Below, piece by piece: positions 2,291 to 61,382 of a DNA stretch of 64,000 bases. Position 1 is the first letter of the stretch; every line of letters begins with the position of its first letter. The translations under genes and the position numbers were made by a program. Origin of the DNA: a virus (Duplodnaviria > Caudoviricetes); IMG/VR virus record IMGVR_UViG_2772190778_000001. One strand, written 5' to 3'. The notes under the pieces were generated by a model. That model did not search any database and was not told where the DNA came from. It saw only the letters and a list, made by a program, of their open reading frames with translations.

Positions 2291-3403
2291 TTAGAACCAG
2301 CGGCCGGTGGCAATCAGATCAACAGTGCGATTGGCGGCAGCTTGCGTGGTGACGGCGGTCACGGCCCAAGGGCCGGATGTAGCATTTGGAGCACTGTGCG
2401 ACGCGGCTCCAAAGGCCGAAGCGGCGTTTGGCATCGCGACCAGTTTTGGCGCGCTGGCCGAAAGGAATTCCGCCGGAAACGTCCAGTTCTGCCCGCCGCT
2501 CCGAAACCCGCCCAAATAGGCGACGTTGATCGCGAGGTTGACCGTCAACGTATGCCAGCAAATCTGTGTACCATCTGCAAAGCGCACATAATCGCCATTG
2601 GCATTGCTGCCCCGCTCGATCACGGCCCCTGTAGGGACGCCGCCGGATTGGCTCACGGTGCCGACGAGGTTGGCCCTTGTCGTGATCTCAGTCCAGGCGG
2701 ACCAGACTGGGCCAACGGTATCCGTAAGGTGCCTCACAAAAATCTGGCTGCTGACCCCAAAGGCGATTTGCAAGAAGCCGCTGGCCCCCGAAGAGGCCAA
2801 GCGTGTCATGTGCAGGACGACGCCTGCTGAACTCGGTGCGCCGGTGGTCGTGCTAGCGTAGCGATGAAAGCCGGTTGTGGTCACGGTATCCAGAGATGCT
2901 GGGGACAAGATAGAAGAGGTTTCCCCAAGGCCGTGCGCCCGGTTCAGCAGCACCCGTCCCGCTGTGGCATCGGAAGGGGAGGATTGTTCAATCGTTGTCC
3001 GTGCCAAGAGCGCGCGTGCAGCTGGGGTCAGATCTGCCAGCGCCAACGTGCCCAAGCCGGTGAAGTAAGGCATTTTGTTCGCTGCCCCTTCCAAACCGGC
3101 AAGGCTCGTGAGGTTGCCAGAGCCGAGCGCTCCGACAATCTGGTTGAGCGCCACGAGCGACCGCTCGCCCGCGTCGATCAGGCGGATCGAGTAGTTTGCC
3201 GATGCCTGTCCACCGCCGGGCCAAGCGCGGGCAAGGGTGATCGAGGTGGCGCTGTTGACCGAGGCAATCTCAACCGTGAGGCCCGCTGCGCGGAAATCGT
3301 CACCGGGCAGGATGCCGCCCGCGATCCAGTTGGTGCCCACGCCTGTGACGGTCGTGCTGCCGTTGCTGACCGAGATGGTCCCCGTGGTATAGGTCGTCGT
3401 CAT
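2291..3403 (-). CDS. Side tail fibre / receptor-binding protein
   Basis: N-terminal YTTGTISVSNGSTTVTGVGT, MPYFTG repeat, C-terminal GSNANGDYVRFADGTQICW fibre-tip motif. Confidence 0.8.
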   Translation of the reverse strand: MTTTYTTGTISVSNGSTTVTGVGTNWIAGGILPGDDFRAAGLTVEIASVNSATSITLARAWPGGGQASANYSIRLIDAGERSLVALNQIVGALGSGNLTSLAGLEGAANKMPYFTGLGTLALADLTPAARALLARTTIEQSSPSDATAGRVLLNRAHGLGETSSILSPASLDTVTTTGFHRYASTTTGAPSSAGVVLHMTRLASSGASGFLQIAFGVSSQIFVRHLTDTVGPVWSAWTEITTRANLVGTVSQSGGVPTGAVIERGSNANGDYVRFADGTQICWHTLTVNLAINVAYLGGFRSGGQNWTFPAEFLSASAPKLVAMPNAASAFGAASHSAPNATSGPWAVTAVTTQAAANRTVDLIATGRWF

Positions 3404-3432
3404 CCCTCACTCCTTTGTTGATCGGGCCGCTG

Positions 3433-6400
3433 TCATGTGAATGCCGCCGTCGCTTTTTCTTCGGCGAACATCTGCGTTCCTTGCAAAACGTAGACGCCCT
3501 TCAGGCCACCGGGATGGGACCAGTAGCGCACCTGCAATGTGTAAGTCGTGGAGGACGCCCCCGGCGTCGTGCGGTTCTTGAACATCAAGCCATCGAGAAG
3601 CTGCCTGCGCCCTACCTCGATCCGCTGCCGATAGATGAGGGTATCCGCCATCTGGACCCCGTTCCTCAGGACCCGGTATTCGACGTCCGCCCCAGCATCA
3701 TCTGGGCTGAGGGACACCGCCTGAAACCGGACGTTCAGGATCATGTGACGCTCGCTGGGCAAGTTCCGATGCGCCGCAGTCAGCGTCAGAACGTCCTCAA
3801 AGTCGGTGGTGCTGGAGATCCCGAATGGGTCTTGCAGGGTCACGGCGCTGATCGCCCCAATCGCGTCGAGTGCAATCTTGTCGGTTAGGATTGACCCGCC
3901 AAGGATCAGATCCCCGTCCAAAACGAAATCGCCCGCCACCTGTACATTGCCGTCGAGACGCAGATAGTCGCCGGACCAGCGACCGGTGATTGTCGCCCCC
4001 TCCACGGTCCCATCACTGACGCTGACCGCCTCAAAGACGTTCTGCTCGTTCAGGCGCATGACAAAGCCCGCCGCAATCCCGTCTGCAGTGGCTTCGGCAA
4101 AGGCCGTGGCCTCGGCCAGTGCGGTCAGATCGCCGTAATTGGCCGAGACGGTCTGATTGACGGCCGCAACCGCCTCCGCCTCCGTTACCTTGGCGGCCTC
4201 GACCGTGGAGACCCGCGCGAGCAGACCGGTCTCGGGGGTATTGAGAGCGCTCTCGACGGTGGTGGTGCGCGAGGCGAGGGAGGTTAGAGCGCCATCGATC
4301 TCGGAGACTTCAGCGGTTAGCAGGTCCAGCGCGTTTGCCGTCGCTAGCCCCGGAATGGCCGCCTGCACCAAGGTGACTGCCGCTGAGACGATCTGGATTT
4401 GATCCTCGGTCAGGTCGATCCGGGAATTGAGGTCCTGGGCCGCCTGCGCCACGACCTCGCGCGTTGCAATCCCGTCCAGTATTGCGCGGGCGGCTCCTTC
4501 GACGGACTGTGCGCCTGTGAGCTTGAGCCGGGAGCGCACCGCGCGGGTGGAATTGGATTGCACCCGTTCGCCGTCCTCGAGCTGTTCGGCGCGCACAGTC
4601 AGTGTGTCCACGGCATCGCCGACCAGATTGAGGCCGGTTTCGAGGTCGGCAATCTCGCCGGTCAGCGCCGTGGTCGCGTCGGTCAGCGTGGCGACGCCTG
4701 CTTCGGTCTCGGTGACGCGGGCGTTGGTCTCGGTCAGCGCCTCCGCAGTGCCCGTGGCAAGCCCCTCCAAATCGGTCAGTTCGGAACCGAGCGCCGTGAT
4801 ATCCTCGGCCAGCGCCAGCCCCTGCGCGATGCGCGCCGCGCGCTCTGCGGTCAAATCGGCGCTTGAGGCTCCGGGGGCCGGGCGGCCAATCGCCAACCAG
4901 TCAATCTCGACGCTTGCGGGCAGGTCGAGGCGGACCCGGTCCACGGTGCCAGACCACGCCAGATCGACAGTGAGGAGCGCCACATCCTCCGCCCATTCCG
5001 GCTCGGCCACGTCGACGCGGCGCGCGGCGTCAAACGCCTGCCCCGAGGCGGCCCACCAGAATTGCGCGGCCCATGCTGGAACGCCACTGCGACGAAGCCG
5101 GGCGCGCAGCTGTCGATAGGCCTGCGTGGGGATCGCAAGACCAGCTGGCGAGATCGCGCCGCTGCCCGATGCGAGCGCAAGCCAACCGTCGGAGGTGACG
5201 CTTGGGGCGGTGGTGACGCCGGTCCACCCTTCGGCGTCTGCATCCCAATACCAGACTGCGGCGGCGTCGAACTGTGTGACCGTGCCCACGGAGAGGAGCG
5301 CAATCTGATTGGCCAGCGCGTCATCGCCGTCGATCCGCGCTTGGTCGACGGTCTGGGCAAGGGCCGCAATATCGCCGGTCGTGGTCTGGAGCGTCTGGAC
5401 CGACTGCGCGATCTGCACCTGCCCGTCGGCCAGCACGGTGAGCGCTGCCGAGGCTTCGGCCCGTGCGCCCTCGATCTCCGCCACCAGTGCGGTGCGCACC
5501 TCGTCGCGCGCCAGAAAGTCCCGCGCGGCGGCCTCGAGCGCCAGTTGTGCAGAGGATTTAATGCGGTCCCGCGCGGCGCGAACGCCGCCTGCGACGGAAA
5601 GCACGTCCCCGGCGCGGGCCTGCGCCTCTGTCAGCAGCGCGCCGTCGAGCCGCGTCACATGCGGCACCTCCGGCACATCGTCCACGCCAATGGGGGCGAT
5701 CACCTGCTCGATGCGGCCGAAAAGATCGGCGACGCTCGGCGGAATTCCATCCTCGCCAAGGTGTGCTTGGGTCAGGGCAAAGGCCGCGTCGAACTGGTCG
5801 CGCAGGGCATCGCTGAGGTCGGCCGCCGCCACCCGCACATCATCCGTGGTCACCCAAATCCAGGCCGACCAGATGCCCCGGCGATTGTCGGAGAGCGCCT
5901 TGGCGCGGACGCGCAGGTTGGTGAGTGGCGGCACAGGCTGGATGGTCGCAAGGCCCCGCTCGACATCGAGCACGGTGCCGCTCCAGACCTCTTCTTCGGT
6001 CTCGCGCTTTTGGCATTCGATGGCGATCCCCTTGATGGTATCGGCGATACCCGAGGCGTCCCAGAAGACGTCGACGGCGGCATGGGCGCGGGTGCCTTCT
6101 GCGTTCGTGACAGTGCGCGCGTCGGCATCAAAGAAGGGCAGGCCTGCGTCGTTGGGCACCGGGCGGGGCAGGATCGAGCTGCGGTCGGGGATCTCGAGCG
6201 CGGCGTCGATCTCGAAATCCTCCGGATCGCGTTCGCGCAGCGAGGCCACGACGGTCAGGCGGTGCAGATCGAGCACGATCTCGGTGACTTCAAAGAGCTT
6301 GTTCGCGTAGTCGTTCCACGCGCTGGTCACCGAGACGGTGTTGAGCGGGCGCAGTCCGGCATAATCGGGCGGCAGCGGCCAAGCGTGCCGCCGCCAGCGC

Positions 6401-15785: not shown

Positions 15786-16142
15786 TCAGGAAGCCGCGCC
15801 TGCGGCGGCCTGCATCTCGGCCCAGACAGTGTCCCGCACGGCGGCGGTGATCTGGTCGGCAAGGCCGGGGAGCGCGTCTTGCAGCGCCTTGACCTTGGGC
15901 TTGCCGCCTTTGTCGAAGGCGTCGCCCGGCAGGGCGTTGATGGCATTGGTCAAGGCCACGCGCAGCGCGTCGTCGAGGACAGGCGGCGGCGCGGTGTCGG
16001 CCCCGCCGTCGGTCTCTTCGATTGCGCCCAAGGCCAGAAGGCGCGCGATCTGCGCCGCGCTGCCGATCTCTTGCGCGGGGTGGGTCGATCCCGCCTCAAG
16101 CCGCGAGGCCGCGATCACAGTGCGTTTGATGAGATAGCTCAT
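15786..16142 (-). CDS. Head-associated protein after capsid (gp35-like position)
   Basis: ATGA coupling; conserved in P2 56761-57117. Confidence 0.65.
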   Translation of the reverse strand: MSYLIKRTVIAASRLEAGSTHPAQEIGSAAQIARLLALGAIEETDGGADTAPPPVLDDALRVALTNAINALPGDAFDKGGKPKVKALQDALPGLADQITAAVRDTVWAEMQAAAGAAS

Positions 16143-17098
16143 GCTGCGTCCTCGATCAGATAGCCGGTGGCGGGGGCGGCGATGACCTCGCGGAGCTGCT
16201 CGCCCACGCGCAGGGTGGTGGCGCCTTTGAGGCCGACCTTGGGGTCGAAGAAACGCCCCGAGACGCGGCCGTCGAATTGCGCGGTCCAGCCCCATGCGGG
16301 GGCGGTGCCATCGGGTCCGGCCTGTGTGTTGCGGTGGATGAGGGCGATATTGCCGCCCCAGACCTTCTCGAAGGCGGCCGTCTGACCTTTGCGCGCCGAG
16401 TTGATGTAGCTGTCGCCCACGAGGATCTCGGAAAGCTCGAAGAGCTCCGCCACCGCCTCGCGGCTGGCGCGGCCCTTGTCGCCCGAGGTCCGGTTGATGG
16501 CCTTCAGGATATCGGGATGGGTCGAGAGCGCCGTCCAGGCCTTGCGCCCCATCGCGGCCACATTGGGGCGCATGATGAAGGTCGCGTCGAGAGCGGCGGA
16601 GATCACGCCGATAGGGTCAGAGGTGGGATCGGTAAACTGGCCCGCGCCCGACAGCACCACCCGCTTGTCGGCGTCATAATTGGCCGCATCTTGCACCATG
16701 GCGGCCACGCGCTTTTCGCGGTCGAGCTGGATCAGATGGGTGAGACCCTCGACGGCACGGGCCTCGGGGTCAAAGGCCGAGTTGCCAGCGGCGCGGAGTG
16801 CCCGCGCGGCATCGATGTCGCGCTGCGGCACCACGTCGTCAAGACCGTAGTCCTTGACGGAGGAGGTGCGTTCTTCGCCGGTGAACTCGACCTGTTGGAC
16901 CAGACCTTTGCGGCCCACTTCCGTGTCCGGCACGGTGAACATCTGTTCGGGCGGATAAAAGGTCCATTTGAAATCCATCCCCATGACCGGCACGCGGGGC
17001 ATCACCTGGTCGGCAATGAAGAAGATATCGGGGTTGCGGTAGTTGACGGCGATGGCGGTCAGGACCGGATCGACGACAAAGGGGGTGGGGGTGCTCAT
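16139..17098 (-). CDS. Major capsid protein
   Basis: MSTPTPFVVDPVLTAIAVNYRN N-terminus, 319 aa, follows protease and cement gene. Confidence 0.9.
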   Translation of the reverse strand: MSTPTPFVVDPVLTAIAVNYRNPDIFFIADQVMPRVPVMGMDFKWTFYPPEQMFTVPDTEVGRKGLVQQVEFTGEERTSSVKDYGLDDVVPQRDIDAARALRAAGNSAFDPEARAVEGLTHLIQLDREKRVAAMVQDAANYDADKRVVLSGAGQFTDPTSDPIGVISAALDATFIMRPNVAAMGRKAWTALSTHPDILKAINRTSGDKGRASREAVAELFELSEILVGDSYINSARKGQTAAFEKVWGGNIALIHRNTQAGPDGTAPAWGWTAQFDGRVSGRFFDPKVGLKGATTLRVGEQLREVIAAPATGYLIEDAA

Positions 17099-17117
17099 GG
17101 ATCAGCGCTCCTAAGGA

Positions 17118-17483
17118 TCAGGTGACAGAGTGACGGGCAATGGCCACGTCGATGATGTCGCCAGCCACGCCCGCCTGCAGCGCGTAGCCGACGGCGATGT
17201 TTCCGGCCCCGGCGACGGCAGCTATGCCAAGGCCCACGCCGTTCGACGCGACGGGCGCACCGGCGGCAACCGTGCCCGCAAGCTCAAGCTCGGCCGAGCC
17301 GGACATGATCACGTCCTGAAGGTCGCCCGGTTTTGCGTCGAGCTGGTCCGAGATACCAATCGCGAGATTGGTCGCGGAGGCGGCCACAAGGATGCCACCG
17401 AGTGTGCCGAATTTAACGATCCGGCGGCCGGGCACCGCCGCCTCGGCGGGATAGGATTTGATGAACAGTCCGGGATTAGCCAT
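17118..17483 (-). CDS. Capsid cement/decoration protein (DUF2190-like)
   Basis: Ala/Gly-rich, AGVAGDIIDV C-terminus; synteny. Confidence 0.75.
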   Translation of the reverse strand: MANPGLFIKSYPAEAAVPGRRIVKFGTLGGILVAASATNLAIGISDQLDAKPGDLQDVIMSGSAELELAGTVAAGAPVASNGVGLGIAAVAGAGNIAVGYALQAGVAGDIIDVAIARHSVT

Positions 17484-18561
17484 TGTCGCTCTCCATGGTT
17501 TCCTCGATCTGGCGCGCCGCCTCGGCAAAGCTCAGCGTGCGGCCCTCGGCCTCTGCGTCCTTGATCAGGCGCTTGGCGGCGGCGGTGATGTCGTCTGGCC
17601 CTTTGACCTGCGGCAGGGCATCCCCGCCCGCCCGCTCGCTGAAGTCGATCAGCGGCTTGGTCTGCTTTGAGAGCAGATCGCGGAACCACGCGCGCGGGCT
17701 GGCGCTCTTGCCTTCGGCAAAGGCCACCTCGTCTTGCGCGTCGAGGCTTTCCATGAACGCGGCCATCTCGTCCTTGAGGCCGGGGGCGATGCGCCCGTCC
17801 TTGACCAGGGCCTCGACCAGGGCGGCGTCCTCGGCGCGGCGCGTCTTGCTCAGGGCCTCGGCGAAGGCGGCTTCCTTAGCCTCAAGCGCGGCTGCGCGCG
17901 CATCGAGCGCGGCTTGGCGGTCTTCGGGGGTTTGCGTGTCCTTGCCGGACATGGCGGTCTCTCCTTTTTGGGGTTCGGCGAATGGGATTTGTGTGGTCTC
18001 GGGCGCGCCTGTGGCGTCGCGGAGTGCCTCTTGGCCTGCGGGGGTGCGTGCCCAGGACAGGACGGCGGCAATCGCGCCTTTCAGCGTGTCCGCGAAACTG
18101 GCGGCGGGCGCTCCCTCTTCCGAGAAGGCGATCTCCAAGGTCACAGCCTCGGCGTCCTCGGCGAACTCGGCCGCCTTGAGGCCCTTCACGGCGGGGGGCT
18201 GCGCGCCCAGAAAGCCCACGTGCTTCAGGTAATAGGTGCCGGGGGTCGGGTTTGCGGCAGACTGGGGAGGATAGAAGGAGGCGCTGATCCGCTTGAAGCG
18301 GCCCGCGCGCACCATCTCGGCGAAGGCAGGCTCCACCTGGTCGGGCTCGGCAAAAAGCTCCGCCCCTTCGGCGCGCAAGCGTTTGACCCAGCCGTAAGCC
18401 GGGGCATCGGTGCGAGGATGGCCCACGACAATGGGGGCCTCATGGAGGGCGGGATTATAGGCGGTGGCAATGCCCTCGACCTCGGCTTCGGAAAACTCGA
18501 AGCTCTGCCCGGAATGGGCGGTGTGGCGACCAGCGCGGAAGATGTGAAGCGGTTTTGTCAT
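17476..18561 (-). CDS. Prohead protease/scaffold (Mu gpI-like)
   Basis: EAPIVVGHP, PAYGWV, YLKHVGFLGAQPPAVKGL motifs. Confidence 0.92.
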   Translation of the reverse strand: MTKPLHIFRAGRHTAHSGQSFEFSEAEVEGIATAYNPALHEAPIVVGHPRTDAPAYGWVKRLRAEGAELFAEPDQVEPAFAEMVRAGRFKRISASFYPPQSAANPTPGTYYLKHVGFLGAQPPAVKGLKAAEFAEDAEAVTLEIAFSEEGAPAASFADTLKGAIAAVLSWARTPAGQEALRDATGAPETTQIPFAEPQKGETAMSGKDTQTPEDRQAALDARAAALEAKEAAFAEALSKTRRAEDAALVEALVKDGRIAPGLKDEMAAFMESLDAQDEVAFAEGKSASPRAWFRDLLSKQTKPLIDFSERAGGDALPQVKGPDDITAAAKRLIKDAEAEGRTLSFAEAARQIEETMESDNG

Positions 18562-18567
18562 GACCCG

Positions 18568-18610
18568 ACATTAAGCCGGGGCGACGGGCCAGATCAGATG
18601 AAGGGCTTCA
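18568..18610 (-). promoter_or_regulatory. Late promoter: dyad TGAAGGGCTTCA at about -38 to -49 plus -10 TAATGT; probably leaderless
   Basis: Motif TCAGATGAAG lies 21 nt from a TAnnnT box here, at 27012-27047 and in P2 upstream of 59536. Confidence 0.55.
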
Positions 18611-18858
18611 GGGGAAGGGGGGCGCGCTGCGCGTGCCACCTTGGGTCAGACTAGCGCCCTCTAAGGGCATGCGGCAAGCCCGGAATGCAAACGGCCCCAG
18701 AACGGCCCGCTGAGTGCGCTTCTGGCTCTGGCGGGGGTTGGGTCGCAAAATCCCCGATGGGGGTATTAAATGGGTATTTAATGAGGCGCTGAGAGGCCAT
18801 TGCGTCTGGTGGGGTCGGTTGCAGGTGCACCTGCGGGGTCAAATAACCCCAAATTGCC

Positions 18859-19080
18859 TCAGGATGCCGATTTGTCGATGAAGGACCGGAGAAGTGCGCG
18901 GCGCTCTTCGGGCGTCCTCTTGGGGCGGTCGAAATAGACCCGAAGGTCTTCGCGGCGGACCGCGACCAGCTCTTCCTTGTCCGGATCTTCGTCGGGCAAG
19001 GCTTCGGCTTCACGCAATGCGGCCTCATAGGCCTCGCGGCTCCATTCGTCGGGGGGCTCAACCAGCAACGTTCGCATCAC
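18859..19080 (-). CDS. 73-aa acidic protein after MuF (putative immunity or anti-defence partner)
   Basis: Coupled to MuF stop; diverged homolog at 59835-60053. Confidence 0.7.
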   Translation of the reverse strand: MMRTLLVEPPDEWSREAYEAALREAEALPDEDPDKEELVAVRREDLRVYFDRPKRTPEERRALLRSFIDKSAS

Positions 19081-20408
19081 GCATCTCCGTTCATGGTCCT
19101 GACAATGGCGGCGGCAACAGCCCGGGCGGTCTCTTCTATGCGTTGGCGAATTGCTCGTGTCCGCGCGCCAAGGCTCTCTTGATATAAGATCAGGCCCTGA
19201 GACTGCAAGACGTCGAGGACCGCGAGGCGCACCGCATGGTCGCGCTCTGTGTTGGTCAAGCCCGGGGCAAACTCGTCAATGAGTTCGGCCGCGACCTCCG
19301 CAAGTTCGCGCATGTTGCCACGGCTGGGCCTCAGCATCTGTGCCCGGAAAAGCGAGCCGTCGTGACCAACGGCAACGATTGATCGAACTTGGCGCTGGAA
19401 CATGACCGCCATGTCATCCGGGCTGAGCGGTGCGGAACTGGGGTGATTGTGCACGAGGCCGACACCCGTGCCGCTCTCCAGCCGCCCGATTATGGAGGAG
19501 GTCAGTCTGACGCGCTTAGGCTTACCCACGCTCCAGTCGATTTCTTCGCCGGTCCCCAGGTCGAACGCGCCAAGATGCTCACGCCCGTCGCCAAGGCCCA
19601 TGAGCCGGGCGCGCATGGCAAAGCCAAGCTCGGTCGCTGCCGCCTGGGCTGAAAGCCCGGCCGATAGCCTCGCGTGGCGCGCGCCGAGGTCAAGCCACGC
19701 ATGGCCCGGGTTGCCGTCCCACGCGGGATCGACCCCGAGTGCCGTGGCTTCGATCTCGCCGGTGCGACGGTTCAGGACCCCGCGCTCCTCCAGCTCGAAA
19801 TCCTCTGTCACCTTGAGGCCGCGCCGCTCCAGCATGCCTTGCGAGAGTTGCTGGACCGTGCAGCCGCAGCGCCAGCCGTTGGGGGGAAAGATACGAAGCC
19901 ATGCCGGGTGATCGACGGGCAGGATCACCTCGTGATAGATCGCGTGTTCCTCGCGCTTGGTGTCGCGCTGGATCTGCACGTAGCGCAGGAAGGGAAAGGC
20001 GGCCTTGGTGCGTTGGATACGCGCCCATTTACCCGCAGCATGGGCCGCGCGCATATTGGCGTCGAAGATCACCCGCAGGCGGCGCGGCGAGCCAAGCCGG
20101 ACATTCTTCATCTCGCCGGTCAGGGGATCGCGCTCCATTCCGCTGCCCCACCAGCCGAGCCGTTTCAACTCGGGCTCGAGGTCATCCATGAAGCTGCCCA
20201 TCGTGCCGCCATTGGCCAGCGCACGGTCGAGTGCCGCCCGGATCGTCTCCAGAACATCAGTCCGCATCGCCTTGGCGACAACGAAGTTGCTGGCATGTTC
20301 ATTGCGCCAGACATCGCGGAAATCAAACCGCGCATCAGGCGGGGCGAGGCCCTTGGAGCGAAAGAACGACAGCGCGTCCTCAGGGCGCAGGCGCTGCAGG
20401 TCGATCAT
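19077..20408 (-). CDS. MuF (gpF) head protein with C-terminal JAB/MPN-like domain
   Basis: MuF motif FPPNGWRCGCTV; C-terminal E...HNHPSSAPLSPDD. Confidence 0.85.
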   Translation of the reverse strand: MIDLQRLRPEDALSFFRSKGLAPPDARFDFRDVWRNEHASNFVVAKAMRTDVLETIRAALDRALANGGTMGSFMDDLEPELKRLGWWGSGMERDPLTGEMKNVRLGSPRRLRVIFDANMRAAHAAGKWARIQRTKAAFPFLRYVQIQRDTKREEHAIYHEVILPVDHPAWLRIFPPNGWRCGCTVQQLSQGMLERRGLKVTEDFELEERGVLNRRTGEIEATALGVDPAWDGNPGHAWLDLGARHARLSAGLSAQAAATELGFAMRARLMGLGDGREHLGAFDLGTGEEIDWSVGKPKRVRLTSSIIGRLESGTGVGLVHNHPSSAPLSPDDMAVMFQRQVRSIVAVGHDGSLFRAQMLRPSRGNMRELAEVAAELIDEFAPGLTNTERDHAVRLAVLDVLQSQGLILYQESLGARTRAIRQRIEETARAVAAAIVRTMNGDA

Positions 20409-21955
20409 GGGGCCAAGGACCCGGGCAGGCTGTCCGACCCATCTGGTGTTTCGCTGTCATCCACCACGGCCCCCAGCTCGCCCGCGAGACGCGCGGCGAA
20501 ACTGGCCTCGGTCAGTAGATCAGTCATCGCTTGTCCGTCGCTTGGTGCGGCCGCCAAGGCGTCGAGACGGGCGCGCAGCGCCTCAAGCGTGGTGCCCGGT
20601 GCGACGCCACCCAGAAGGGCCGCGATATCTGCGAATAGCGGCTCGGCGGCCGTCTCGGCATGGCCCTCGGCGATGATCTCCGCCGCGAGTGCATCGAGCG
20701 CGCTCTCATGGCGATGCTCGGCAAAACCGGCCTCGGGCGGGTTCTCACCAGGTTGTGTTGGGTCGGGAGGGGCCGCGCGCTCATACCCGTCGCCATAGGT
20801 CTCCTTGACACGGTCCTCGGACATGCGCCAGCCCATGCGGTGCAGCTTCTCGTCGCGGTCCACGGCGGCGGTTGTATCCTCCGGGTCTTCCATCTTGCGC
20901 CAGACCCTTGGCGGCGTTACGCCGGGGAAGTTGAACTCGGAAAGCTGCGCCACCGGCCCTTCGTTGAAGGACTGGCAGACGAGATCCGCGTCTGACTTCT
21001 TGACGGCGTCGCCCACGTCATCATGCACCTCGGCCTGCGACCGGCTGGAGCCATTGTCGGTGGTCATGGTCTGCGACAGCACGATTTTCGAGATTGCGGC
21101 ATCCATCGTGTCGTGCAGCTTCTGGTAATCCAGAGAACTGGCACCCGAGGGCGCGGACAAAAGCTCAATATCCATGCCCTCGGGGATGATGATCCCGGCC
21201 TCCGAGCGGATGGCCATCACGGCCTCGAGCAGCTTCTTCTGTTCCGCTTCGGTGGCTTGCGAGGGATACTTGCCCCGCGCGGTCGGCATGCCGAATTTGT
21301 CGAGGGCGATCAGCCAGAGCTTCAGCCCATTGCGCTTGAACCAGACCGGCCAATAGAGCCAATGCGCGAGGCCAAGCCCATAAGGCTCGTCGTCGTGATC
21401 CGCCCCGGTCGAGAACACCCAGAACTTCTCGGGCGGCATTTCCTCTCCGGTCAGCATATTGGAGAGGGTCAAAAGGCGCAGGCCGCAATTCTCGTCAAAG
21501 CGAAACCGTACCCGGTCGCGCACGCGGATTTCCTCCCAGCCCCAGAGCCGCCCGTCGCGGCGATACATCTGCTCGGCGACGGAATAGCCATAAAAGAGGC
21601 CCCAGAGCATCTTCTCGGTCAGGCGGTCGAACTTCATGGCCGAAAGCTCGTCGCGCAGCCAGTCGGCGGCGCGTTTGCCCGCCGCCGTGTCCTCGCCCGG
21701 CACCACCTCCCATTCCCGGCTGGTGACGGCCGAGATGCGCTGCGTCATGACCGATTTGACCTGCGGATCGGTCAGGATCGGCTTGTAGATGTCAAAACTG
21801 CCACCGCCGCGCGTGCGCAGGATCGGGTCCGTTGGTTCGAGCAGCGGGCCGATCCATGGCCGGGTGATATCGCGACCGTTCTGGATGCCCGAAAGCTCCA
21901 TCGGGTTGCGCAGCCGTACCGAGCGCAGCCGCATGGTGCTGGTCTTTCTAGCCAT
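20405..21955 (-). CDS. Portal protein (Mu gp29 / DUF935)
   Basis: LDKFGMP, ISKIVLSQTMTT, AEVH motifs. Confidence 0.92.
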   Translation of the reverse strand: MARKTSTMRLRSVRLRNPMELSGIQNGRDITRPWIGPLLEPTDPILRTRGGGSFDIYKPILTDPQVKSVMTQRISAVTSREWEVVPGEDTAAGKRAADWLRDELSAMKFDRLTEKMLWGLFYGYSVAEQMYRRDGRLWGWEEIRVRDRVRFRFDENCGLRLLTLSNMLTGEEMPPEKFWVFSTGADHDDEPYGLGLAHWLYWPVWFKRNGLKLWLIALDKFGMPTARGKYPSQATEAEQKKLLEAVMAIRSEAGIIIPEGMDIELLSAPSGASSLDYQKLHDTMDAAISKIVLSQTMTTDNGSSRSQAEVHDDVGDAVKKSDADLVCQSFNEGPVAQLSEFNFPGVTPPRVWRKMEDPEDTTAAVDRDEKLHRMGWRMSEDRVKETYGDGYERAAPPDPTQPGENPPEAGFAEHRHESALDALAAEIIAEGHAETAAEPLFADIAALLGGVAPGTTLEALRARLDALAAAPSDGQAMTDLLTEASFAARLAGELGAVVDDSETPDGSDSLPGSLAP

Positions 21956-23597
21956 CCGGGAACCCTCCAAAATCCAGAACTCCGCCACCTCGGGCAAAGC
22001 CCATGCGCCGCCCGCCCAAAGGGCTGATGAAGTCCTCGGCCGTCAGAGCGGTGCGCCGCCCGGTCGATTGAAACTCCATGGGCACCACGTCCTGATTGCT
22101 CGCATGCCAGGCGAGCGCGCCTGCGATGGCGCTGTCGCCATGCCGGTCGAGACCGTCCGAGCCTTTGAAGCGGAAGTTCTCGGGCACGCGAATGATGCCG
22201 TTTGTGTATTGCAGCGCCTGATGGTCGCGCAGCACGTCCTCATGGGCGGGCAGAACGATGGTGCGATCCGAGAAGGCTTCGATATAGGGCGGCATCTCCA
22301 GCTCGTACCATGCCCTCGTGAATGAGACCTCGACGATCCGCGCGCCGTAGCGTTGGGCCGCGACCTCGGCGAGATAGGCCCCGTTGCCGGTGCGGTCCAT
22401 CGCGCCCTTTTGGAAATTGGGCAGGCGGTCGAGCAGCCAGAAGAGCACGTCGCGCTGCTGGTCAAAGGGGATATTGCGCAGCTCGACAATGAGCTTGGTG
22501 CGCCGGGTGAGATCGACGCCCTGCTCGAGAATGATGATGTCGGTGGCATCGCCCGAGCGCGCAAAGTCCTCGCCCATGAAATGCGGGCGCGTTCGGTCGA
22601 GGGTTTTAAGCACCGGTTCAAGGTGGGTTTTACACCAGGCTTCAGCGGCGGCCTTGCGGACGGGTTCGTCGGCATTCTTGAAGCTGTCGGGCTGCGTCCA
22701 GCGATGGAACGGGATGCCCTGCGCCATGCAGGCCTCGATTTGGACGCGGGTCAGGGCCGCGCCTTCCATCTCGGCGGGTTCCGCATCAAGCTCTTGGCGC
22801 ATCGCGGCCTCGCGCGCGCCGTAAGCCCGGCGCACAGTGGCCTCCCACGCGGCCTCGGCCTCTGGCGTCCAGGTCTTGCCCTGCATCATGCAGACGCGTT
22901 TATAAAGCCCGTTGGCGACCGCGTCGCTGAATGTGTAGCGATGCACCGCAAAGCCGTTCTTGCCCGCGCGCGCCTCGCGGATCAGCTCGTTGAAGGCATT
23001 GAGATAACCGTTATGGGTCGAGATGATCCGGACCTTGCCGCCCCAGATCAGCATTGCGTTCACGGCGTCGATCACCTCGCGCACGTCCTTGTGGAACGCG
23101 GCCTCGTCGATCACCACGGTGCCCTGAAGGCCCCGGATATTGGCGGGGTTGGAGCTGAGCGCCTCGACGCGGAACCCGGAGGCAAAGCGCACGCGGTAGG
23201 CCGAGATGAACTTGGTGGTGCCGTCGGGCTGTTGATCCTCGAAGAGAAACTCCTCGATAGGGTGCGCCGCCCCCGCGATCACCCGCGCGAAATGCGCCAC
23301 ATAGCCAATGGCCTCGCGGCCCTTATCCTTGGTGTCGCCGATGTAAAAGCAGTTCTGCCCGCCCGCACCGCGCGCGGCGGCGGCAATGAGGGCGCAGCCC
23401 AGCATCTCGGCAAAGGTGATGCCGGTGCGGCGACCCTTCTCGCAGACCTTGAGATCGCTCTCGTCGGCCAGCCAAGAGCGTTGATGTTCCATCAGGATGC
23501 CGTCTGCCAGCGGATCGAGGCTCTCGGGGATCTCCGAGCCGCGCGGCAATTCCTCGGGGAGCGCGTCCGGGTCGCGGGTGAGGACGGGGGCGGTCAC
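21948..23597 (-). CDS. Large terminase (Mu gp28-like)
   Basis: EKGRRTGIT Walker A, VVIDEAAFH Walker B, GEDFAR nuclease, HGDSAIA. Confidence 0.92.
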   Translation of the reverse strand: MTAPVLTRDPDALPEELPRGSEIPESLDPLADGILMEHQRSWLADESDLKVCEKGRRTGITFAEMLGCALIAAAARGAGGQNCFYIGDTKDKGREAIGYVAHFARVIAGAAHPIEEFLFEDQQPDGTTKFISAYRVRFASGFRVEALSSNPANIRGLQGTVVIDEAAFHKDVREVIDAVNAMLIWGGKVRIISTHNGYLNAFNELIREARAGKNGFAVHRYTFSDAVANGLYKRVCMMQGKTWTPEAEAAWEATVRRAYGAREAAMRQELDAEPAEMEGAALTRVQIEACMAQGIPFHRWTQPDSFKNADEPVRKAAAEAWCKTHLEPVLKTLDRTRPHFMGEDFARSGDATDIIILEQGVDLTRRTKLIVELRNIPFDQQRDVLFWLLDRLPNFQKGAMDRTGNGAYLAEVAAQRYGARIVEVSFTRAWYELEMPPYIEAFSDRTIVLPAHEDVLRDHQALQYTNGIIRVPENFRFKGSDGLDRHGDSAIAGALAWHASNQDVVPMEFQSTGRRTALTAEDFISPLGGRRMGFARGGGVLDFGGFPDG

Positions 23598-59536: not shown

Positions 59537-59834
59537 GACCCGACATTAAGCCGGGGCGACGGGCCAGATCAGATGAAGGGCTTCAGGGGAAAGGGTGGGG
59601 CGCTGCGCGTGCCGCCTTGGGTGAGACTAGCGCCCTCTGAGGGCAGGCGGCAAGCCCGGAATGCAAACGGCCCCAGAACGGCCCGCTGAGTGCGCTTCCG
59701 GCTCTGGCGGGGGTTGGGTCGCAAAATCGCCGAGGGGGGTATTAAATGGGTATTTAATGAGGCGCTGAGAGGCCATTGCGTCTGGCGGGGTCGGTTGCAG
59801 GTGCGCCCGCGCGGTCAAACAGCCCCAAATTGCC

Positions 59835-60053
59835 TCAGGATGCCGGTTTGTCGATGAAGGACCGGAGGAGTGCGCGGCGCTCTTCGGGGGTGCGCCGGGG
59901 GGAGGGGCCGAACATGATTTCTAGCTGTTTTTTGCGCGCGGCGACAATCTCGGCTTTGTCCGGATCGTCGTCGGGCAGAGCCTCGGCGTCGCGCAGCGCG
60001 TCTTCGTAATCCTGGCGCGAGGAGCCTTGGGGTTCGGTCAAGAGATAAGCCAA
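59835..60053 (-). CDS. 72-aa acidic protein after MuF
   Basis: Diverged homolog of 18859-19080. Confidence 0.7.
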   Translation of the reverse strand: MAYLLTEPQGSSRQDYEDALRDAEALPDDDPDKAEIVAARKKQLEIMFGPSPRRTPEERRALLRSFIDKPAS

Positions 60054-60056
60054 GTC

Positions 60057-61382
60057 TCACTCCTCCAGCATCTCGGTGATTGCGCGGACAACCTCTGCAA
60101 CCGGGCCTCCCACTCTCTGGCGAACTTCAAGGGCGCGCGCACCGGGGCTGTCCGAATATAGGATCAGCCCTTGCGCGCGCAACACCTCGAGAACAATCAG
60201 GCGGATCGCAGTATCTCGGTCCGCCCGGTCCAGATCCGGCGCGATCTCGTCGAGCATTTCCCCCGCGACGTCCTGAAACCCCACGACGTTAACCCGCGCG
60301 GACGACAGACGCACGGCCCTGTAGAGCGACCCGTCATGGCCCACCGCCAGAATGGAGGTGACGCGCCGCTCGAACATCGTGGCGAGGTCTTGCGGGCTGA
60401 GAGGCGCAGAACTGGGATGATTGTGCACAAGGCCAATCTCTTGCCCGTCGCGCAGGCGTTGCGTGACCTCCGGCCCGAGGCGCACCCGGTCAGCACCCCC
60501 CACGCTCCAGTCGATTTCCTCGCCAGTCCGCAGATTGAACGCGCCAAGATGCTCGCGCCCGTCGCCAAGGCCCATAAGCCGGGCGCGCATGGCAAAGCCA
60601 AGCTCGGTTGCCGCCGCCGGGGCGGAAAGCCCGGTCGATATCCCTGCATGGCGCGCGCCGAGGTCAAGCCAAGCATGGCCCGCGTTGCTATCCCATGCCG
60701 GATCGACCCCAAGCGCCGTGGGTTCAATCTCGCCGGTGCGACGGTTCAAGACCCCGCGCTCCTCCAGCTCGAAATCCTCTGTCACCTTCAGGCCGCCCCG
60801 GTCGATCATGCCTTGGGAGAGTTGCTGGACCGTGCAGCCGCACCGCCAGCCGTTGGGGGGAAAGATACGAAGCCATGCCGGGTGATCGACGGGCAGGATC
60901 AGGTCGTGATAGCGCGCGTGGTCCTCGCGCTTGGTGTCGCGCTGGATCTGGACGTAGCGCAGGAAGGGGAAGGCCGCCTTGGTGCGTTGAATGCGTGCCC
61001 ATTTGCCCGCAGCATGGGCTGCGCGCATATTGGCGTCGAAGATCACCCGCAGGCGGCGGGGCGAGCCAAGCTGGACGTTCTTCAACTCGCCGGTCAGGGG
61101 ATCGCGCTCTGTGGCGCTGCCCCACCAGCCAAGCCGTTTCAACTCGGGCTCGAGGTCATCCATGAAGCTGCTGAGCGTGCCGCCATTGGCCAGCGCCCGG
61201 TCGAGCGCCCCACGGATCGTCTCGAGCACGTCAGTTCGCATCGCCTTGGCGACAACGAAATTGCTGGCGTGCTCATTGCGCCAGACGTCGCGGAAATCGA
61301 ACCGCGCATCGGGCGGGGCGAGGCCTTTGGAGCGAAAGAAGGACAGCGCATCCTCGGGGCGCAGGCGCTGCAGGTCGATCAT
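60057..61382 (-). CDS. MuF with C-terminal JAB-like domain
   Basis: HNHPSSAPLSPQD; N-terminus near-identical to P1, C-terminus diverged. Confidence 0.85.
   Translation of the reverse strand: MIDLQRLRPEDALSFFRSKGLAPPDARFDFRDVWRNEHASNFVVAKAMRTDVLETIRGALDRALANGGTLSSFMDDLEPELKRLGWWGSATERDPLTGELKNVQLGSPRRLRVIFDANMRAAHAAGKWARIQRTKAAFPFLRYVQIQRDTKREDHARYHDLILPVDHPAWLRIFPPNGWRCGCTVQQLSQGMIDRGGLKVTEDFELEERGVLNRRTGEIEPTALGVDPAWDSNAGHAWLDLGARHAGISTGLSAPAAATELGFAMRARLMGLGDGREHLGAFNLRTGEEIDWSVGGADRVRLGPEVTQRLRDGQEIGLVHNHPSSAPLSPQDLATMFERRVTSILAVGHDGSLYRAVRLSSARVNVVGFQDVAGEMLDEIAPDLDRADRDTAIRLIVLEVLRAQGLILYSDSPGARALEVRQRVGGPVAEVVRAITEMLEE

Follow-up and report, generated by a model that had tools for sequence, protein, structure and literature searches.

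MuF is a portal-associated minor head protein that is packed in the capsid and, in well-studied relatives, exits together with the DNA. Domains fused to it have been argued to be delivered effectors (PMC5512222). The MuF polymorphic toxins of temperate phages join a conserved MuF N-terminus to a variable C-terminus, which is followed by a short downstream gene presumed to confer immunity (Jamet et al. 2017, PMC5576092). Those described so far come mostly from Firmicutes and end in nuclease, metallopeptidase, ADP-ribosyltransferase (ART) or RelA-like domains; JAB/RadC domains have zero occurrences in that work, and the MuF protein of RcapMu is listed there as 'Cter-Unk' (PMC5576092). A similar arrangement is found in the 64,000-nt stretch of viral DNA analyzed here (Caudoviricetes; IMG/VR record IMGVR_UViG_2772190778_000001), referred to as the window, which holds two related Mu-like prophages, A and B, on the minus strand of marine Roseovarius DNA. 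Each encodes a MuF protein with a C-terminal domain resembling the JAB domain of RadC, followed by a gene for a small acidic protein, termed the partner. The pattern is real and not a chance one, and it is a variation on the known theme of polymorphic MuF effectors with immunity genes, built on an unannotated clade of RadC-like JAB domains. Our preferred explanation, to which we assign a probability of about 0.55, is that the MuF JAB domain is a virion-carried, exchangeable effector and the small protein its cognate inhibitor.

RadC-like JAB domains (PF04002; PDB 2qlc) share three features with the C-terminus of these MuF proteins: the JAB fold, the HNHP signature and the E..HxH..S..D site. 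The MuF gene of prophage A (19077..20408, minus strand) encodes 443 amino acids; its MuF domain is N-terminal, and its JAB domain takes up the C-terminal residues 258-443 (19080..19637, minus strand). Its counterpart in prophage B (60057..61382, minus strand) encodes 441 amino acids, with the JAB domain at 60060-60611. The AlphaFold2 model of MuF A residues 258-443, computed with 20 homologues in the input, has a pLDDT of 94.3 and a pTM of 0.88. Its leading Foldseek matches are all JAB/MPN chains (CSN5, Rpn11, archaeal JAMM1, AMSH, RadC and BubCD), although at modest E-values of 2e-3 to 3e-2. In the model, the first strand begins with a glutamate, HxH ends the strand at 59-65 and S..D opens the helix at 73-81, as in JAMM enzymes. 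Both copies have all five corresponding residues (E277, H320, H322, S329 and D332), each on the structural element where it would be expected. By translation, the codon of the predicted catalytic Glu277 lies at 19578-19580 in MuF A and 60552-60554 in MuF B, and the putative metal-binding motif HNHPSSAPLSPDD of MuF A, which holds H320, H322, S329 and D332, at 19413..19451 (minus strand); the motif of MuF B is at 60387-60425. The domain is under purifying selection as well, with a dN/dS of 0.2-0.4 where the site is intact, versus about 0.1 for the MuF N-terminus.

Within the JAB superfamily, an exhaustive structural scan with VIA-align ranked PfJAMM1 (Z 7.3), Cap3 (Z 6.8) and RadC (Z 6.1) in what amounts to a tie, and deaminases of the same fold class are level with them (Z ~6). 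Profiles discriminate further. With hhalign, the family profile matched Rhodobacteraceae RadC at 94.7% (E 6e-8, over 59 columns spanning the catalytic core) and Prok-JAB at 72%, while RadC against Prok-JAB, the yardstick, reached 87%. Since the match to RadC is stronger than this control, the domain is placed closest to RadC in a predicted JAB superfamily membership to which model and profiles both point. A preliminary description of the window had called the C-terminal domain JAB-type, and the AlphaFold2 model, the fold matches and the RadC profile match all bear this out. The MuF family nevertheless differs from RadC-like domains in several respects. Its consensus, VHNHPxxxxLSxxDL, leaves six residues between HxH and S, one below the canonical seven of RadC; it adds three helices and a strand at its C-terminal end, an extension specific to the family; and it is carried by phages, on MuF and in the company of ddrB-ParB. 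The JAMM/MPN+ peptidases (PfJAMM1, 5ld9; Cap3, 9ild, of the cyclic-oligonucleotide-based antiphage signaling system, CBASS; Rpn11; CSN5) supply the best structural matches and the same metal-site geometry, but Pfam JAB and Prok-JAB miss the MuF domain, and the neighboring small protein is helical rather than beta-grasp.

Sequence libraries largely pass over this clade. Neither the C-terminal domain nor the small proteins had a match in Pfam, PHROGs or NCBIfam, and Pfam RadC (PF04002) found nothing among the window proteins or 20 relatives at E up to 10. Across all six reading frames of the host genome the picture was the same: Pfam RadC recovered the chromosomal radC only and missed the MuF JAB domain, as did Prok-JAB. 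PDB sequence and profile searches with the domain returned spurious matches only. The domain was also considered as a Mu MuF_C/PBECR domain, and this was rejected, the JAB hidden Markov model (HMM) having no match to phage Mu gp30.

When their DNA is compared in sliding segments of 100 nt, the two prophages are 82-98% identical across the 7.2-kb head module (82-98% in 15786-18884, 89-95% in 19573-20772 and 83-97% in 20773-22972), and identity drops to 46-67% solely in 18885-19572, a fall from roughly 92% in the flanks to roughly 60%. The edges of this block are sharp. One lies just past the first strand of the C-terminal domain and the other about 50 codons into the small gene, so that the exchanged cassette delimited by DNA identity and dS (18885..19572, minus strand) comprises most of the JAB domain and the first ~50 codons of the partner gene. 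The proteins follow suit: by BLASTP, MuF A and MuF B are 79% identical overall, with 92.4% over residues 1-278 and 55.9% over residues 279-439, and E277 and HNHPSSAPLSP(D/Q)D (residues 320-332) are retained in both. The partner proteins are 64% identical overall, 57% in the first 50 residues and 86% in the tails; beyond the block, these tails (RTPEERRALLRSFIDK) and the spacer that follows are conserved again. The preliminary description had portrayed a MuF N-terminus nearly identical between the prophages, a C-terminus about half identical with its motif kept, and a small acidic gene diverged alike. The second and third statements agree with these values; of the first, the conservation stands and the wording was slightly generous at 92%.

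Synonymous divergence indicates how the block arose. In the JAB block dS is 1.42, against 0.285 in the N-terminal part of MuF. Because dS is thus also five times higher, locally accelerated evolution was rejected, and the block is therefore an old allele that recombination brought in. Across the 18 Roseovarius-clade loci used to follow cassette inheritance, at least four cassette types occur, and identity in partner residues 1-50 tracks JAB identity closely (r 0.90, and still 0.90 as a partial r once the N-terminus is controlled for; p 2e-4 by permutation), the corresponding partial r with the MuF N-terminus being -0.42. Two loci, L018 and L036, combine a B-like N-terminus with a type-A cassette.

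The partner itself forms one family, conserved among the phages of Rhodobacteraceae. A family HMM built from 13 copies matches directly after MuF in most relatives (E 1e-12 to 1e-29). The protein is always acidic (pI 4.1-5.7), evolves under a dN/dS of 0.04-0.2, is predicted to form three helices, and has a K-T/S-P-x-E motif near its C-terminus that is conserved across clades; the ESM Atlas offered no useful look-alike for it. Partner gene A (18859..19077, minus strand) encodes a 72-aa helical protein of pI 4.8 and overlaps the MuF gene by TGATG, and partner gene B (59835..60053, minus strand) likewise encodes 72 aa. Both MuF genes and both small genes had been placed correctly from the outset, and two start codons have been corrected: for partner A the likeliest start is ATG 19077 (giving the 72 aa) and not GTG 19080, and partner B starts at TTG 60053, one codon past the MuF stop in the same frame with a GGAGGAG ribosome-binding site upstream. 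In general, the partner start is coupled to the MuF stop through a TGATG or ATGA overlap, an overlap of 13-20 nt, or a TTG three bases on behind GGAGGAG. In type-B cassettes (window 60054-60059; L004, L005, L037 and L039), the partner lies in the MuF frame, split from it by the stop and one codon. Programmed read-through of this stop was considered and rejected: L038 has TAA instead of TGA, the TTG has a strong ribosome-binding site ahead of it, and in type A the partner is not in the MuF frame.

The presence of the partner depends on the state of the active site. In JAB-bearing phages, the site has decayed many times with the fold kept, leaving AQHSD, GRLGD, DRRTD, DRTSD, ERYGD, GRSHE, RTQVE and others in place of the five catalytic residues; a Rhodobacter capsulatus prophage is among these relatives. 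Because so many of them keep the fold with a ruined site, JAB catalysis is evidently dispensable for head assembly. In the RcapMu-like and Roseovarius clades, the partner is found in every complete locus with an intact motif except L009, where the gene is truncated (four loci at contig ends were not scorable), and it is deleted in nearly all lineages with a decayed motif. The median gap from MuF to the protease gene is accordingly 257 nt without the partner versus 513 nt with it. On a tree built from the MuF N-terminus only, four to five independent pairs change in the same direction and none in the opposite one. As for L009 (3848-4138; Salipiger aestuarii DSM 22011), the start of its partner (MKIIIRPEPDL...) runs into the N-terminus of the protease (DRIELIPVGSF...) while its JAB motif is intact; the two genes were apparently joined by a deletion.

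A further likeness is to the orphan toxin-tip/immunity modules of contact-dependent inhibition (CDI), Rhs and MafB systems. In one IMG/VR contig, L037 (IMGVR_UViG_3300029266_001636), a complete type-B pair is followed at 3098-3483 by the orphaned 3' end of a JAB sequence, of a fifth type (HMM positions 128-177, E 1e-10), which overlaps the start of a second, 75-aa partner gene of another type. As in those modules, a truncated effector 3' end is kept together with its own partner gene; unlike in them, the carrier is a phage head protein and not a secreted toxin. Tandem second partner genes are present in L062 (3072-3251) and L073 (2742-2924), bringing the survey of ~100 loci to one orphan and two tandem duplications. 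The proposal in the preliminary description that the small gene is a cognate partner thus gains from three sides: co-inheritance within the cassette, co-loss with decay of the site, and the orphan fragment with its second partner.

The C-terminus can also be replaced altogether. In relatives whose MuF N-terminus is 75% identical, an ART domain (PF03496), a classical toxin domain of the described MuF toxins, stands in the JAB position, and others have PBECR2 there; the alternatives among close relatives are JAB types A to D, ART and PBECR2. PF03496 was scanned in L058 and L059, and L060 was grouped with them by its non-JAB C-terminus of the same 450-aa length. That the C-terminus is exchangeable, as had been supposed, is borne out by these relatives. 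In two IMG/VR contigs (L058:1495-3136 and L059:1495-3118), the ART-type MuF gene is followed by an overlapping, conserved open reading frame (ORF) of 93 aa without a family match, and the two probably form an ART-immunity pair at the same locus.

On these grounds, the partner is most likely an immunity-like inhibitor of the JAB domain, a reading favored by three things: the orphan module, the loss of the partner together with the site, and the unlike small gene that follows ART-type MuF. Under such a scheme, MuF-JAB and partner would be produced together late in infection, with partner translation coupled to that of MuF. The partner would bind the JAB domain as it is made and silence the enzyme in the producing cell. 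MuF would then dock at the portal and be packaged, and the next infection would release the domain with the DNA for early action. The variable first 50 residues of the partner may set cognate specificity and its conserved K-T/S-P-x-E tail may contact the invariant catalytic region. Between phages, domain and partner travel together in a single recombination cassette. Candidate substrates are a peptide or isopeptide bond, or else a nucleic acid or nucleotide. The former fits the similarity to Cap3 and JAMM1, the acidic domain, and the leader-bearing standalone family members described below; the latter is the prediction of the RadC literature.

Several observations weigh against the inhibitor reading. 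JAB/RadC domains are not established toxins, and we know of no case in which a JAB domain has been shown to be toxic. The partner sits in the late operon and so would not protect the lysogen. Adjacent genes are co-inherited by linkage alone, which means that the cassette correlation is not an independent proof of interaction. The co-loss has its exceptions on both sides: in a more distant clade, L066 and L076 have an intact motif and no detectable partner, and four loci retain the partner behind a decayed motif (L010 and L064, ERHSD; L016 and L092, DYRSD). The sign test on the independent pairs is underpowered (p ~0.06). When JAB B and its partner were folded as a fusion, with TGA read as Trp, the pTM was 0.71 versus 0.88 for the MuF A domain alone, and the pLDDT of the partner was 67-85, a placement of moderate confidence. 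Finally, the JAB domain too is mostly acidic, a weak argument against a nuclease that binds DNA and is held by a DNA-mimic inhibitor; the idea of a DNA mimic restraining a basic nuclease was, for this reason, not supported.

Two alternatives survive best, and we regard both as improbable. The first is the preferred explanation made more specific by naming a target: the JAB domain would be a virion-delivered deconjugase or isopeptidase that strips ubiquitin-like (Ubl) conjugates installed by defense systems such as CBASS Cap2, Bil or Bub, with the partner as a pseudo-substrate inhibitor or regulator. Cap3 and BubCD are indeed among the structural matches, as is a bacterial Ubl-deubiquitinase complex (Z 5.5 against the domain model with VIA-align), an acidic domain resembles a peptidase more than a DNA binder, and the signal-peptide-like leaders on standalone members fit a peptidase that acts on proteins. 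Set against this, the Z-scores for Cap3 are tied with those for RadC and matched by deaminases, the family profile lies nearer to RadC than to Prok-JAB, and RadC-type domains have been argued to lack the groove for a ubiquitin tail (PMC5512222). No Ubl, E1 or E2 gene turned up, in a gene context that was not examined for them. In its broadest form, the proposal would make the whole clade of RadC-like JAB domains on MuF and minor-capsid proteins a set of capsid-carried counter-defense peptidases, injected with the DNA, acting in the first minute of infection on, for example, the Ubl conjugates of CBASS Cap2, Bil or Bub systems, and each restrained in the producing cell by an acidic pseudo-substrate inhibitor; this we hold to be a long shot of about the same standing. 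If true, it would give RadC-type JAB domains the first function with a biochemical basis.

The second alternative, which we find equally hard to credit, keeps the enzyme active and turns the partner into its substrate, cofactor or assembly factor, for instance through a tail that the JAB domain cleaves, or as a protein required for the catalytic cycle alone. Co-loss with catalytic decay fits this as well as it fits an inhibitor, and the conserved K-T/S-P-x-E near the partner C-terminus recalls JAB enzymes that act on C-terminal tails. Orphan and tandem extra partners, however, are the mark of immunity genes and not of substrates, and the ART-type MuF has a different small gene in the same place. 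An assembly factor fares no better, since domains without catalysis should go on requiring a chaperone for folding or packaging, whereas it is in these that the partner is lost.

Somewhat less probable still is that the partner is an independent accessory or anti-defense gene that shares the cassette by adjacency only. The position between the MuF and protease genes is an accessory locus of Mu-like phages, extra small genes gather there in L037, L062 and L073, and linkage alone could yield the correlation between partner and JAB domain. The gene nonetheless belongs to one conserved family in Rhodobacteraceae phages and not to a variable set, its start is coupled to the MuF stop, it has been deleted in several separate lineages of site decay with the reverse never seen among the independent pairs, and its extra copies are paralogues of the same family, one of them with a JAB fragment. 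No aca-like regulator follows it either. The preliminary description had drawn an analogy with the anti-CRISPR locus of Pseudomonas phages, and this analogy is not supported: the ORF lists contain no aca-like gene after the partner and no conserved gene between it and the protease gene, and the intervening ~300 bp are non-coding and conserved. A purely structural C-terminal domain, for instance one contacting portal or DNA, with a motif that has no part in catalysis, would suit the many functional-looking relatives that keep the fold with a ruined motif, the Rhodobacter capsulatus prophage included, but is very improbable given five catalytic residues intact in both copies and in most of the family representatives compared, purifying selection on the domain, and a partner whose presence depends on the state of the motif.

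The family to which the effector candidate belongs is broad. A profile search of 1.84 billion representative proteins (E up to 1e-3) found 722 representatives of the MuF-type JAB family, and all five catalytic residues (EHHSD) are kept in 120 of 150 that were compared. Many MuF proteins of 440-950 aa, some of which contain inteins, end in this domain, and it also occurs on minor-capsid proteins. In three MuF-JAB proteins of 818-948 aa (P0147, P0153 and P0167), a Hint/intein stands just past the MuF domain. Like the RadC-like JAB domains that mobile elements carry in very large multidomain, or polyvalent, proteins (Iyer et al. 2017, PMC5512222), the domain is found in giant phage-type polyvalent proteins, such as one of 3937 aa with ddrB-ParB and another with InPase. 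One distant member (P0101) passes the Pfam RadC cut-off (23.5 bits versus 22.1). The ESM Atlas neighbors of the domain are all unannotated, the nearest named ones being Phage_min_cap2, Prok-JAB and RadC. Viral scans with single distant family proteins, made for their genomic context, had no match.

Standalone family proteins of 180-250 aa exist as well. Those of ~240 aa (P0043, P0050, P0056, P0067 and others), all metagenomic, have hydrophobic N-termini resembling signal peptides or those of lipoproteins, which suggests secreted or periplasmic JAB enzymes; this form was absent among 400 sampled Pseudomonadota genomes. Far from the Rhodobacteraceae phages, Streptococcus phage MissF bears the JAB domain on a minor capsid protein, and two bases after this gene comes an ORF of 52 aa with a net charge of -8, a distant recurrence of the layout that further ties the small gene to the domain. 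In the MissF record (L138:1711-3445; OL799250.1) the ORF is annotated as 'ATP-dependent RNA helicase', a label that looks wrong because the ORF has only 52 residues and so negative a charge.

Few domains of bacteria and phages that lack a known activity are as widespread as RadC-like JAB domains. Their function was still called unknown in a 2025 review (PMC11981726). A dedicated partner would provide a direct genetic assay for a RadC-like JAB domain. The work also assigns a predicted fold to the RcapMu-type MuF C-terminus, one of the extensions in Proteobacterial phages that Jamet et al. 2017 had left unclassified (PMC5576092), would extend the MuF effector-immunity idea beyond Firmicutes, and would enlarge the known range of effectors delivered from capsids by a JAB clade that phages carry. 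Tests are feasible in two cultured phages with an intact pair, Rhodovulum phage vB_RhkS_P1 and Pelagibaca phage vB_PeaS-P1, which are the nearest cultured relatives of the prophages and have the same MuF and small-gene layout. The close relatives otherwise comprise Roseovarius genomes (91-94% identity) and many marine viral contigs.

In both prophages the gene order is terminase, portal, MuF, small gene, a spacer of ~300 bp, protease/scaffold and major capsid. In prophage A, MuF sits between the portal gene (20405-21997; phrog_113, 8e-122), which overlaps its start, and the protease gene (17476-18561). The N-terminal domain is that of the MuF family: Pfam Phage_Mu_F (PF04233; cut-off 29.6) matches MuF A over residues 55-185 with 39.3 bits and MuF B with 42.7 bits, and MuF A matches phrog_220, 'minor head protein and DNA pilot', at 3e-72. 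Phage Mu itself has the same order of portal, MuF (gp30), a gene overlapping the MuF stop (G), a spacer with a gyrase site, and protease. It differs in that the C-terminal domain of gp30 is unrelated, with a weak Pfam MuF_C match, and that G has 156 aa and is unrelated to the 72-aa partner. The spacer from the partner gene to the protease gene lies outside the cassette; it covers 297 bp in prophage A (18562..18858), with its counterpart in prophage B at 59537-59834, is 93-98% identical between the two, and has a fixed length within each clade. In the phage Mu record, the equivalent position, between genes G and I, is occupied by the gyrase cut site.

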